A DNA stretch of 64,000 nucleotides from the NCBI GenBank assembly GCA_034100525.1, contig JAXELM010000097.1, positions 27,272-91,271 on the forward strand, read 5' to 3'. Of the stretch, positions 10,213 to 46,183 are shown one piece after another. Within the stretch, counting starts at the first letter, position 1; each line of letters starts with the position of its first letter. The notes beneath the pieces are model-generated. The model did not search any database. It saw only the letters and a program-made list of their open reading frames with translations, and was not told where the DNA came from. The DNA comes from Agathobacter sp. Its GTDB lineage: Bacteria; Bacillota; Clostridia; Lachnospirales; Lachnospiraceae. The translations under genes were made by a program, and so were the position numbers.

Positions 10213-10663
10213 AATAATATTTATGTGTTCCCCATAAATTACTTTTTTTAAGATCCAGATATTCGTTGTATGCTTTTTCTAAAATCTGCTTTTCATTTGA
10301 AAACTTAAGTAAATGATATGCCTCATGAAATTTATAATAACCTGAGTCTACAAAATACTCTTCTCTTTGTGGCTTACTATAATAACTTTCGCCCATCATC
10401 AAATACCAATGTACATCTTTTTCAACTACATCGTCAGGAATGTTAAAGGAATAATGACTCTTTCCTATATATTGAATTATAGTTGCATTAGCACCGGTTT
10501 CTTCTTTGACTTCCCGTATGGCAGTGTCCTTATATTCCTCTCCAGATTCAACAGTACCCTTTGGAAGTACCCAGCCTTCGTATTTGTTACGATAGTTTTT
10601 GTATAAGAGTAAAATCTTACCACGAAAAATTACCACACCGCCACAGCTTGTTGCTTCGATCAT
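10211..10663 (-). CDS. NUDIX hydrolase (Ap4A-hydrolase-like)
   Basis: Nudix box GTVESGEEYKDTAIREVKEETGA preceded by WVLPKG. Confidence 0.9.
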   Translation of the reverse strand: MIEATSCGGVVIFRGKILLLYKNYRNKYEGWVLPKGTVESGEEYKDTAIREVKEETGANATIIQYIGKSHYSFNIPDDVVEKDVHWYLMMGESYYSKPQREEYFVDSGYYKFHEAYHLLKFSNEKQILEKAYNEYLDLKKSNLWGTHKYY

Positions 10664-16200: not shown

Positions 16201-16234
16201 ATCATTTCCTCCAGTTTGTTAAATACAATATATT

Positions 16235-16260
16235 GTACATTATACAAGTACATTATACAA
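16235..16260. repeat. 13-bp tandem direct repeat (2 copies) in the zapA promoter
   Basis: GTACATTATACAA at 16235-16247 and 16248-16260. Confidence 0.9.
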
Positions 16261-29388: not shown

Positions 29389-29528
29389 TTTTCTGTTTAA
29401 TTATACCACTTTATGGGTGTAGAAATATACTATATATTGTTTTTTTTTAAATACTTTTTATTTTTAAATACTAAAATAGATGGTATAATGATAGCATAAA
29501 AATATTTTATAAAATTGAGAGTGAATTT

Positions 29529-40263: not shown

Positions 40264-41052
40264 TTATCTTCTATTAATAGAACGTACTACAAAATCACTT
40301 GTAGAAGTTCCTTCACTGGCTGCGATAGCTGCAGCAATTACAGCAACAAGCTCAGTATCATCCATTAAATTCTCTTCTGTTGCATTAGTTTCAGCAGGTA
40401 CGTTTTCAATTACAAGATTATCATTACTCTTGTTTGCTTTATTCTTTTTCTTTTCTTCAAGCATAGGGAAGATAACAAATCCCTTAATGATTAAGCTGAT
40501 AAGAATAAGAACTAAGAATACTATTGATAATGAAATAACCGTATTCTGTCCTGCCGAAGTCATCTTTTCACCCAATGTCTGAACAGGATTGATTGAAATA
40601 CTTGTTACAGACATATCATAATAATCATAAACGACTTCAAAAATAACATCTTTCTTACCAAATTTCAAAGTAAGATCACTTGTAAGTGTGTTTCCAGCTT
40701 TGTTTACCTCAAAAATATCTGTTGTATCAATAGATTCGAGTGTAAAATTCTCATCGTCAAACTGAGTACATTCTCCATATTTGCTTTCAACTTCAGTCCA
40801 GTTAGCACATGCATTAATCTGTGCATCAGTATAACCGTAACCATATAATGCTTCCTTGTCTTTATCTGACAATGAACCTGCATCTATATATTGCGACATA
40901 TACGAAACATAATATGCATTTGTGACAGCCTCATTAGATAAATCTGTATAAGATTTACCATTGTAATCCACCTTCTTTGGATCTTCGCCACAAGCACAAA
41001 GCATGCAAATTGAAAGCAAAACAGTAAGCATTAAAGCTAATTTCTTTTTCAT
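40264..41052 (-). CDS. OadG/delta-type decarboxylase subunit with N-terminal lipoprotein domain
   Basis: Lipobox LCAC, TM segment NTVISLSIVFLVLILISLII, C-terminal ELVAVIAAAIAA...FVVRSI. Confidence 0.82.
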   Translation of the reverse strand: MKKKLALMLTVLLSICMLCACGEDPKKVDYNGKSYTDLSNEAVTNAYYVSYMSQYIDAGSLSDKDKEALYGYGYTDAQINACANWTEVESKYGECTQFDDENFTLESIDTTDIFEVNKAGNTLTSDLTLKFGKKDVIFEVVYDYYDMSVTSISINPVQTLGEKMTSAGQNTVISLSIVFLVLILISLIIKGFVIFPMLEEKKKNKANKSNDNLVIENVPAETNATEENLMDDTELVAVIAAAIAASEGTSTSDFVVRSINRR

Positions 41053-43877: not shown

Positions 43878-44447
43878 TTATATATCAAGTTTGACATTCA
43901 TTTCAGCCTCAGCTTCCTGTTTAAATTCTTCTAACTGAACAGGGCTTAAAACTGGTAAATCCTCTATAGAATGTACTCCAAATGACCTCAGGAACTCTTC
44001 CGTAGTGCCGAATAATAATGGTCTTCCGGGAGCATCTAATCTACCCAGCTCGCATACAAGATTATATTCAACAAGTTTATTTACAGCATGGTCACAGGAA
44101 ACTCCTCTTATCTTTTCTATTTCTACTCTGGTGATTGGCTGCTTATAAGCTATTATTGACAAAGTTTCAAGCAATACATCTGTTAAAACACGTTTCTTTG
44201 GTTGTTTTGCAATTTTAATCAGATATTCATACATATCAGTTTTGGTACACATCTGATATGAACCATCTAATTCGATAATTGTTATTCCTCTATCAGAAGT
44301 ATTGTATTCATTCTGTAAATCTTCTAATATTTTTTTCGTTTCTTTGGCATCTAATTCAATTGTATTTGCGATTTTGGTAAGCTCTACAGATTCACCCATT
44401 GTAAATAAGATAGCTTCCACTATTGCTTTATAATTCTTTTTTTCCAT
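43878..44447 (-). CDS. scpB: SMC-Scp complex subunit ScpB
   Basis: IVEAILF, LETLSIIAYKQPITR, GRLDAPGRPLLFGTTEEFL. Confidence 0.96.
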   Translation of the reverse strand: MEKKNYKAIVEAILFTMGESVELTKIANTIELDAKETKKILEDLQNEYNTSDRGITIIELDGSYQMCTKTDMYEYLIKIAKQPKKRVLTDVLLETLSIIAYKQPITRVEIEKIRGVSCDHAVNKLVEYNLVCELGRLDAPGRPLLFGTTEEFLRSFGVHSIEDLPVLSPVQLEEFKQEAEAEMNVKLDI

Positions 44448-44459
44448 ACTACTCCACTA

Positions 44460-45209
44460 CTATGCCGCAATCTTTGAATCTATTTTGATATCATCAAAAA
44501 TTTTCTCCTGCGAAATAAAAATCTTCCCCATTTTCATAAGCTCCAAAATGGCAAGAAATGTCACAATTATATTGACCTTGCTTGACTGCTTCTCCAACAG
44601 ACTTCTAAAGCTAAAATGCTGGTGTACTTTAGCGTATTCTGTAAGATATTCCATCTTATCCTCAAGAGACACCTCTTCTTTTTCGATTTTTCCAAATTTA
44701 GATCTAACAGGATCAATTTTGTCTACCTGTTTTTTCATAATACTTTGAAAGATATCATTAAGCTTTGCCAATGTAATATCAGAAACAAGCTCATCAATAT
44801 CTACAGGCTCTTCATATGCAAGAATCTCGTCTGGAATTGTCGGAACCTTGAACATAGTTTTCTGGGCATCTATTTGTCTGTCTTTAAGTTCATAAGCCAT
44901 GCATTTATACATTTTATACTCTAACAACTGCTGAACAAGCTCTGCTCTTGGATCTTCTTCTTCCTCTGGTGCATCAGGATTAGATGGCAACAGCATCTTT
45001 GATTTTATATCAATCAACGTGGCTGCCATTACAAGGAATTCACTCAGAACATTCAAATCGCGTCTTTTCATTTCAGCAATATATTCCATGTATTGTGCCG
45101 TAATCTCAACAATAGGTATATCGTATATATTTACTTTATTCTTATCAATCAAATGTAGTAATAAATCTAATGGTCCTTCAAATACCTGAAGCTTTACTGT
45201 TAAATCCAT
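44460..45209 (-). CDS. scpA: Segregation/condensation protein ScpA
   Basis: FEGPLDLLLHLI, EFLVMAATL, IKSKMLLP, TFLAILEL; start ATG 45209. Confidence 0.96.
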   Translation of the reverse strand: MDLTVKLQVFEGPLDLLLHLIDKNKVNIYDIPIVEITAQYMEYIAEMKRRDLNVLSEFLVMAATLIDIKSKMLLPSNPDAPEEEEDPRAELVQQLLEYKMYKCMAYELKDRQIDAQKTMFKVPTIPDEILAYEEPVDIDELVSDITLAKLNDIFQSIMKKQVDKIDPVRSKFGKIEKEEVSLEDKMEYLTEYAKVHQHFSFRSLLEKQSSKVNIIVTFLAILELMKMGKIFISQEKIFDDIKIDSKIAA

Positions 45210-45232
45210 ATTTTGTGCCTCTTCTCCTTTAA

Positions 45233-45350
45233 TACCAAGATATTGTAACAAGATATTGATGCTATTTCAAGTATAATTTACAATATTTAGTACAATATTC
45301 TAAAAAATTACACAAAAGATTGCTATATTTAGTATGACTATATATAGTTT
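45233..45350. promoter_or_regulatory. Array of NrdR-box-like palindromes upstream of scpA
   Basis: Six CWATATATWG-like cores at 45236, 45249, 45281, 45313, 45323 and 45338; identity of the binding protein is inferred. Confidence 0.5.
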
Positions 45351-46183
45351 ATAAGCTTGCAGATGTTTAATTTTCCCCAGCAAATTGTATCATCAGGCAT
45401 ATCATCTACAGTATTATACAATGCCAGTTTTAAATCTATAGGTCTTAATTCATTGTTTTTCTCAAGTGCTAATGCCAATGCTGCACATACTATTGGTGTC
45501 GCCATTGAAGTTCCGGTTTTTGATATATATTCATCTTTTTTGTTTTTCAGGCTTGTAATATTCGAACCTGGTGCGAGAATTTCAGGCTTTATTATACAGC
45601 ATTCAGTAGGACCACACCCACTGAAGTTTTCGTTTAAAGCCCCAACTGTAATCACTTTTCGAGAAATTCCGGGGACAGTTATTGTATTGGATTTAGGACC
45701 ATTATTTCCCGCCGCTGTTACAACGGTTATTCCCGCATCCCATATCTTATTTATCAAATCTAAAATCATTTTTCTGTCATAAAGATTTGACCGTCCAATA
45801 AATCCGACCGAAAAGTTGAGCAATTTAATATTGAATTTTTCTTTATTTTCGAGTACCCATTTTAAGGCTCTTATAAAGTCAATGGTTTTGCCGTTTCCAT
45901 TTTTATCAAGGACTTTTAGCATTAGTAAATCTGCTTCTGTTGCAATTCCCATATATTTGTGATTGCATGCCAGACCTGAGCCTGATATTATACCGGCAAT
46001 ATGTGTTCCATGTCCATTTTCATCCGTAGGATTATTAGTATCCGAAATAAAATCTTTATAAAAAATAACACTATTTTCAATATCTCTATGTAGAAATATT
46101 CCTGTATCAAGAATTGCGATGCGTATATTTCTACCAGTTTGTTTAATTTTTTCTAATTCAAAAAACTCTCTTATACGATTCAT
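45338..46183 (-). CDS. Subtilisin-like S8 serine protease (AprX-like catalytic domain only)
   Basis: Triad LDTG, HGTHIAG, GTSMATP; oxyanion AAGN. Confidence 0.92.
   Translation of the reverse strand: MNRIREFFELEKIKQTGRNIRIAILDTGIFLHRDIENSVIFYKDFISDTNNPTDENGHGTHIAGIISGSGLACNHKYMGIATEADLLMLKVLDKNGNGKTIDFIRALKWVLENKEKFNIKLLNFSVGFIGRSNLYDRKMILDLINKIWDAGITVVTAAGNNGPKSNTITVPGISRKVITVGALNENFSGCGPTECCIIKPEILAPGSNITSLKNKKDEYISKTGTSMATPIVCAALALALEKNNELRPIDLKLALYNTVDDMPDDTICWGKLNICKLINYI

Follow-up and report, generated by a model that had tools for sequence, protein, structure and literature searches.

How far does the regulon of NrdR, a repressor known from ribonucleotide reductase (RNR) genes, extend into chromosome segregation? 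The question is raised by the region upstream of scpA and scpB in Agathobacter sp., genes for two components of the SMC ring by which chromosomes are organised and separated. The original prediction, made on a stretch of 64,000 nucleotides (hereafter the window), described six related palindromic cores at this site and proposed that NrdR, or a protein of similar specificity, binds cooperatively over the scpAB promoter. The locus comprises the following genes, predicted promoter elements and boxes, with scores from the matrix described below:

43878..44447, minus strand: scpB (TIGR00281 above cut-off), 12 bp 3' of scpA
44460..45209, minus strand: scpA, kleisin subunit of SMC-ScpAB (Pfam SMC_ScpA above cut-off)
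45203..45218: start-codon box, core 45206-45215, over the scpA ATG and 43 bp from box D; score 9.0; not conserved
45218..45229, minus strand: ribosome-binding site of scpA, read off the sequence
45233..45248: accessory +25 box, core 45236-45245, covering the -10 hexamer and the probable transcription start; score 9.8
45242..45247, minus strand: predicted -10 hexamer TACAAT, with a 17-bp spacer to the -35 hexamer
45246..45261: box D, between -35 and -10 at +12 relative to the -35 hexamer, core 45249-45258; score 9.2
45265..45270, minus strand: predicted -35 hexamer TTGAAA of a sigma-70-type scpAB promoter
45278..45293: box A, the NrdR-type anchor, core 45281-45290, offset -20 from the -35 hexamer; score 11.4
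45310..45325: box U, 32 bp from A on its upstream side (offset -52), core 45313-45322; score 3.6, weak
45320..45335: accessory 42-bp box, at a distance of four helical turns (42 bp) from A, core 45323-45332; score 7.6
45335..45350: perfect palindrome, overlapping the 3' end of the subtilase coding sequence, stop codon included; core 45338-45347
45338..46183, minus strand: subtilase (S8) gene, 5' neighbour of scpA

The scpA gene starts at the ATG at 45209, and its relatives begin at the equivalent methionine; a longer TTG start (45251) falls within the predicted promoter and is probably unused. We take scpB to share an operon with scpA, transcription of which would start near 45235. By itself, the promoter scan of the Agathobacter sp. 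scpA region is at chance level; a promoter, mostly this same one, is predicted in 91 of 97 orthologous upstream regions. Relative to the -35 hexamer, the seven boxes lie at offsets of -77, -62, -52, -20, +12, +25 and +55.

All six cores of the original prediction are present, and their spacings are as described, with 32 bp separating 45249 from 45281 and 45281 from 45313, and 42 bp separating 45281 from 45323. Five of them (45236, 45249, 45281, 45323 and 45338) match CWATATATWG with at most one mismatch, and the core at 45313 has two mismatches. The seventh box, which the original prediction did not contain, has its core (45206) over the scpA start codon and passes the published rules for NrdR boxes. 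All seven in fact satisfy these rules as set out in PMC13584703 (C4, A6, T11, G13 and an AT content of at least 63% between C4 and G13), which are loose in AT-rich DNA. The expectation that five cores matching at nine or more positions would exceed chance is borne out: dinucleotide shuffling of the 143-bp intergenic stretch (78% AT), repeated 20,000 times, never yields more than three matches. Among the 660 core matches with at most one mismatch in the Agathobacter sp. assembly (2.52 Mb), the scpA array is the sole cluster of at least three cores within 130 bp. Single cores occur in the window at the chance level (20 found versus 19.6 expected), with further perfect ones at 10465 and, inside coding sequence, at 40884.

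The AT-richness of the region and this background of single cores speak for a reading in which AT-rich promoter structure (an UP element and -10 flanks), passed on from a common ancestor, has produced the boxes as a by-product, together with local duplications. The -10 hexamer falls within the +25 box, two cores at a distance of 13 bp have identical sequences, and box A lies where a distal UP element would be expected. Such a reading does fit the perfect palindrome, an orphan in terms of phasing, and the rnfC site described below. Two other motifs were considered and set aside: WalR repeats, for which the period here is 12 and not conserved, and DnaA boxes, for which only some of the relatives have a DnaA-like nonamer overlying box D.

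The original prediction stood or fell with the presence of nrdR in the genome. The gene is found in Agathobacter sp., above the family cut-off, and encodes an intact protein with Zn ribbon, ATP cone, D15, R17 and RRRR motif. These last residues are those described as reading the box in the S. coelicolor NrdR structure, and the same paper reports that NrdR kinks DNA by approximately 90 degrees per box (PMC9110341). NrdR carrying ATP only is reported not to bind DNA, while slowed DNA synthesis raises dATP, upon which an NrdR tetramer with ATP and dATP binds and represses (PMC13584703, PMC9110341). In vitro, two boxes are described as required (PMC13584703, PMC12051234). Since nrdR is present in 151 of 151 family genomes, the family offers no nrdR-less genome for a co-loss contrast.

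The nrdD gene serves as a positive control. It is the only RNR gene found in the Agathobacter sp. assembly, in which, at 88% completeness, neither a class I nor a class II RNR was found, and its promoter carries a 32-bp box pair flanking TTGACA. Of 26 nrdD loci, 22 have a start that could be located; 17 of these 22 carry a pair in the adjoining 250 bp, and three more upstream regions carry a pair farther upstream. One relative has two nrdD copies with a box pair at each (L038/L057, G009), and a class I nrdA in another relative likewise carries a pair (L202, G003).

The original prediction had called for a matrix built from nrd boxes. Our 16-bp matrix was derived from 32 boxes found upstream of nrdD in relatives, with Agathobacter sp. 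excluded from training, and we defined a pair as two boxes spaced by 31-33 bp with a summed matrix score of at least 13. For scpA, 102 upstream regions were collected and five identical ones dropped, leaving 97 with Agathobacter sp. included; the closest relatives are mostly labelled Agathobacter, Roseburia, Lachnobacterium or Lachnospiraceae. When scpA upstream regions are compared, as had also been proposed, the paired cores and their phasing prove conserved in about half, with a pair at 50 of the 97 scpA promoters of these close relatives, although kin are non-independent samples in this and the related counts. Within the last 150 bp before scpA, a pair occurs in 46 of 97 regions versus 1 of 1940 shuffles, far above the shuffled background. 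The spacing of the boxes peaks sharply at 31-32 bp (51 box pairs), and other spacing windows yield 2, 6, 0, 1 and 7 of the 97 regions, the last of these being 41-43 bp. The background rate of pairs is 10 in 900 Agathobacter sp. promoters, with nrdD, scpA and flgB among these 10, and none in 287 non-focal promoters of relatives. Beyond the close relatives, 5 of 29 and 4 of 40 genomes of other Lachnospiraceae genera carry a pair (9/69); these 69 are part of 149 genomes with an scpA match, and one of the five positives seemingly duplicates L118.

When aligned on the predicted -35 hexamer, scpA boxes fall at -20/-19 in 46 of 91 promoters, at +12/+13 in 23 and at -51/-52 in 21. Boxes at nrdD show the same register (-20/-19 in 14/17 and +12 in 14/17), and the 251 predicted Agathobacter sp. 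promoters show no general box peak at these offsets. The predicted A+D pair thus straddles the predicted -35 hexamer at -20/+12, as in nrdD, and would overlap the polymerase site. The 91 scpA promoters divide into those with U+A (20), A+D (17), U+A+D (6), A alone (5), U alone (2) and none of the three (41). In other words, the partner switches from one side of A to the other with the three-turn spacing retained and with diverged spacers, a pattern that matches a tetramer needing two phased boxes as described in PMC12051234. In Agathobacter sp., box U scores poorly and has retained C4, A6, T11 and G13; relatives use its position as the alternative partner. What these alignments show to be conserved is the anchor together with a second box at 31-32 bp, in some promoters with one on either side, and boxes A and D, 32 bp apart, are the predicted main operator pair in Agathobacter sp.

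The sharp spacing peak, the partners on either side of A with diverged spacers, and the lack of both a general box peak and non-focal pairs run counter to a by-product of AT-rich promoter structure. We regard that reading as largely refuted for the A, D and U positions, and as a very improbable explanation of the locus as a whole.

A further reading is that the operator serves a neighbouring gene or is the relic of a former RNR gene or promoter. The register shared with the nrdD promoter is in keeping with a relic, and in many relatives a divergent carboxypeptidase-like gene shares the intergenic region. Against this, the pair remains anchored on the scpA -35 hexamer under five upstream contexts among 75 loci (cls 14, subtilase 3, metallophosphoesterase 5, divergent 13, other 4). 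Because the upstream neighbour differs among relatives, the subtilase gene in particular is an unlikely target. The 3' neighbour of scpB in these 75 loci is usually carboxypeptidase-like, a name given by family scan only in Agathobacter sp., and we recognised no nucleotide-metabolism gene 3' of scpB in the loci examined. Likewise, no nrd gene was recognised adjoining scpA in the loci listed, where neighbours were named by sequence motif and only in part by family scan, and a relic would not retain its spacing through the site turnover described above. We therefore give this reading only a very slim chance.

The pair is far from universal. On a quick ScpA tree it is scattered, with at least 19 gains or losses, and it is absent from 47 of the 97 close relatives and from 60 of the 69 other-genus genomes, with nrdR in all 151 family genomes; the link between scpAB and NrdR would therefore be dispensable. 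In Agathobacter sp., boxes A and D also score below the median nrdD box (13.7). In a set of relatives including L015, L017 and L019-L021, a divergent carboxypeptidase-like gene lies close to scpA and NrdR boxes are absent; the place of box A is taken there by a conserved motif that resembles a sporulation sigma promoter. Three records titled Bacteroidaceae, Senegalimassilia and Muribaculaceae (L060, L061 and L070) contain an ScpA that is 86-89% identical to that of Agathobacter sp., along with the same promoter, and are probably mislabelled or mis-binned assemblies.

Taken together, a conserved NrdR-type pair flanks the predicted -35 hexamer of scpAB, and we consider it likely, judging from the sequences and from published NrdR behaviour, that NrdR represses scpAB upon dATP build-up. 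The proposed steps of binding and repression follow the published mechanism of NrdR. An NrdR tetramer with ATP and dATP would bind A and D, or A and the upstream partner, and by kinking the DNA at each box would block RNA polymerase at scpAB. As replication uses up dNTPs, ATP-only NrdR would release the operator, and scpAB would be expressed together with nrdD; a pile-up of precursors would shut scpAB again.

What, then, of the additional boxes? The original prediction holds insofar as a predicted NrdR-type operator lies on the scpAB promoter of a genome with nrdR, whereas its proposal of cooperative binding over all six cores is unsupported in that form. Two sets of boxes overlap (45236 with 45249, and 45313 with 45323), so that some cannot be bound simultaneously, and these overlaps, along with the partnerless box at 45338, lead us to reject cooperative use of all boxes as the core mechanism. 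The perfect palindrome, counted in the original prediction as part of the array, is an orphan that has no partner in phase and a position occupied by a box in 1 of 91 promoters, that of Agathobacter sp. alone. The box 42 bp from A (offset -62/-63) recurs in 5 of 91 scpA promoters, including that of the closest relative, L059, where box D has lost C4 and the 42-bp pair remains. The +25 box recurs in 8 of 91; it lies 45 bp from A with no partner at 31-33 or 41-43 bp, and the start-codon box is 30 bp away. On this comparison, the dense array appears to be a lineage-specific, local elaboration of a conserved pair or triple. Its extra boxes would provide alternative in-phase pairs (32, 42 and 43 bp) and may tighten repression.

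The original prediction further suggested an extended regulon on the basis of perfect cores at 16226 and 29430. Both cores exist, and as single cores they are at the chance level:

16223..16238: single strong box immediately 3' of the zapA -10 hexamer; score 14.8
29427..29442: single core in the rnfC/exonuclease intergenic region

At zapA, 9 of 21 relatives have a strong single box, mostly just past the -10 hexamer, against a background of 35 in 900, while two boxes in phase occur in only 1 of the 21; from this, zapA is a possible, weak member of the regulon. In the rnfC/exonuclease region, none of 23 relatives has a pair and three have a strong single box at differing positions, and the core in Agathobacter sp. 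is probably due to chance. The notion of a wider regulon thus stands insofar as pairs extend beyond RNR genes, with zapA represented by a single box only and the rnfC/exonuclease site unsupported.

This wider distribution is seen in a blind scan for the paired-box pattern in 25 genomes of the genus, for which we read the surroundings of 37 matched loci. Matches occur in all 25 genomes, several-fold above a reversed-pattern control, and an nrdA promoter is among those recovered. Follow-up of genes from the scan in 24 relatives, with regions shorter than 200 bp dropped, finds a pair at parA in 8 of 17, at rny in 6 of 19, at flgB in 12 of 23 and at a coiled-coil gene after dnaJ in 8 of 21, rates that are biased upward because the scan chose the genes. 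On these occurrences, NrdR probably also acts at parAB/parS, flgB, rny and the gene after dnaJ in this clade. The pairs at flgB, rny and parA lie mostly upstream of the core promoter, such that simple occlusion is not to be assumed there. In this way, NrdR would make part of the programme for segregation and motility depend on replication activity.

Other candidates fared less well. For ftsK, no pair is found in 22 relatives and a strong single box in one of them, with a strong box in Agathobacter sp. itself. For smc, no pair lies within 1.5 kb upstream in five of five genomes, and the operon promoter may be farther up. We rejected pflB, which yields scan pairs in three genomes, no pair in nine relatives tested directly and none in Agathobacter sp., and which would be lineage-specific at best.

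Several individual sites are worth recording. In Agathobacter sp., a 32-bp pair surrounds TTGACA in the flgB region (L345:1251-1298, G000:C221), and in relatives (L353-L376) flgB pairs occur at two different positions. The gene after dnaJ (L346:1577-2023, G000:C53; L405-L425) has a weak C-terminal DnaJ-like match, below cut-off, and a box just ahead of a -10-like hexamer. In the recX-rny interval (L259-L277), a 31-bp pair lies upstream of the RNase Y promoter, and Agathobacter sp. has a single box there (C7:14771). One relative has a pair-pattern match upstream of dnaA (L211, G020:C19) and strong boxes upstream of rpoB (L181, G020:C2), as does Agathobacter sp. at rpoB (G000:C158:12451). Agathobacter sp. 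additionally has several strong boxes near a SipL/LysM spore-coat gene (L343:1274-1682, G000:C98), a 31-bp pair ahead of a TPR protein gene (L342:1007-1053, G000:C63), and two strong boxes 98 bp apart (L344:1252-1365, G000:C233) 3' of a gene that we take to encode a pyruvate:ferredoxin oxidoreductase. Finally, pair-pattern matches lie beside mobile-element-like genes at L204 (G008:C120), L212 (G020:C20) and L188 (G012:C1), presumably a plasmid-type replication initiator, a phage portal and an integrase, respectively, which suggests that mobile elements carry NrdR sites.

The set of genes so obtained (scpAB, parAB, flgB, rny and zapA) resembles a cell-cycle regulon, and sites are patchy in a family where nrdR is universal. 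Both features would suit a different regulator that recognises the same C-N8-G palindrome with three-turn spacing, such as a clade-specific cell-cycle factor. We consider such a regulator improbable, as the matrix that finds the sites derives from nrdD promoters alone, both published spacings (31-32 and about 42 bp) are present, and C4, A6, T11 and G13 are invariant in the selected scpA boxes, although this invariance is partly circular because the boxes were selected by score.

The pairs at parA have a layout of their own. The ParB-parS centromere upstream of parAB (soj-spo0J) loads SMC-ScpAB, as established in Bacillus subtilis. As in B. subtilis, perfect parS palindromes are present upstream of parA in the relatives. 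Unlike known ParB-parS systems, these relatives carry an NrdR-type pair between two parS sites at a fixed offset: in 8 of 8 parA cases, the pair sits between two parS palindromes separated by 106-110 bp. Its proximal box is 28-29 bp from the parS closest to parA, and its spacer has diverged. In a ninth genome, the pair lies 28 bp from a parS located approximately 600 bp upstream of parA, and in other genera one of five genomes shows the parS-pair-parS layout. A scan of metagenomes for the composite, run with no control scan, returned 16 stretches, 13 of them with a parA homologue at 71-100% identity. The loci carrying the module are L242, L244-L246, L251, L252, L256, L258, L430 and L435-L450, several of which show additional strong boxes beyond the two parS sites. 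The occurrence of pairs at scpA and parA was compared in 15 genomes, in which kin are non-independent: five have both, two have the scpA pair only, one has the parA pair only and seven have neither. We did not find parAB, parS or dnaA in the Agathobacter sp. assembly (88% complete), and five more assemblies of the genus contain no exact parS match, indicating that the parAB/parS region is often unassembled. In the literature searched, we found no report of an NrdR-type pair between parS sites.

The position of the parA pair outside the core promoter, together with the kinking of DNA by NrdR, raises the speculative idea that NrdR may act on ParB-parS rather than on polymerase. A broader scheme would make NrdR a dNTP-sensing checkpoint at both ends of the condensin pathway, repressing ScpAB and, via the parS-flanked kink, influencing ParB loading or spreading and hence SMC loading, while also tuning flagellar, division and RNA-decay genes. 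We hold this scheme to be possible and rather doubtful. Were it true, the dATP/ATP ratio would directly switch segregation capacity, a link for which we found no precedent in the literature searched.

The same parS-flanked pairs, lying away from the parA core promoter, can be taken to mean that NrdR binds and that its role is mainly structural or that of a buffer (bending of the origin region or titration of NrdR), or else that its effect on scpAB is small or activating. One relative carries a 22-box NrdR-type array, mostly of 30-31 bp period and far from any RNR gene, that would suit such a role, and topA of P. aeruginosa is reportedly activated via a single box (PMC4409342). PMC12051234 questions the topA result, RNA-seq in 10.1101/2025.03.28.645925 did not reproduce it, and the scpA pair, in the register of the nrdD operator across the -35 hexamer, has the geometry of repression. 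We accordingly view a mainly structural, weak or activating role at scpAB as unlikely and favour repression. The 22-box array itself (L198:7170-8086; G008:C147:75169-76085) has all boxes in a single orientation, with 14 of 21 intervals at 30-31 bp and with boxes conserved and spacers diverged. It precedes the S10 ribosomal operon, with an ABC permease-like gene on one side and a methyltransferase on the other, in a genome without the scpA pair, and could be an NrdR sink or a bent-DNA structure.

When compared to the NrdR operators described at RNR promoters, namely E. coli nrdAB, nrdHIEF and nrdDG, S. coelicolor nrdRJ, and those of Listeria and Streptococcus (PMC9110341, PMC12051234, PMC13584703), the scpA sites share the 16-bp boxes with C4, A6, A8, T9, T11 and G13. 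They also share the 31-32 bp pair, the 42-bp alternative, the predicted overlap with the core promoter and the nrdD register. The core at 45313 has a middle AG like that of E. coli nrdAB box 2. One difference is the operon itself, which consists of the genes for the SMC partners ScpA and ScpB, with no RNR or nucleotide enzyme in it and no RNR gene recognised beside it. Also unlike the RNR operators, there are up to seven boxes in Agathobacter sp., and the operator is found in only about half of close relatives.

Precedents outside the RNR genes are few. Rodionov and Gelfand (2005) are cited as having predicted topA in Pseudomonas and dnaA in Shewanella as NrdR targets (PMC4409342, 10.1101/2025.03.28.645925). 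As with those predictions, an NrdR-type site at scpA lies ahead of a chromosome-maintenance gene, whereas scpA has a correctly spaced pair across many species in place of disputed single boxes. Partitioning and ligase genes are also said to have been listed by Rodionov and Gelfand in a few genomes, and an earlier computational listing for Clostridia is possible. According to a 2025 preprint (10.1101/2025.03.28.645925), the non-RNR targets dnaA and topA have single boxes, paired boxes in E. coli and P. aeruginosa coincide with an nrdR-dependent change at RNR operons only, and repression through paired boxes is proposed to be limited to RNR genes. NrdR is described as a conserved, small regulon in Proteobacteria (PMC5343134). 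Among the matches listed in a full-text literature search, outside which most subscription papers fall, there was no paper linking NrdR to scpAB or parS, and in the literature searched we found none on transcriptional control of scpAB.

Most likely, then, as far as promoter sequences can tell, a known repressor has in scpAB a target of a new kind. If true, it would be a genuine exception to RNR-only repression through paired boxes. An operator on SMC-ScpAB, together with the parS-operator-parS module, would show that abundant gut bacteria wire chromosome organisation to the dNTP pool, which bears on how bacteria match segregation and division to replication activity.
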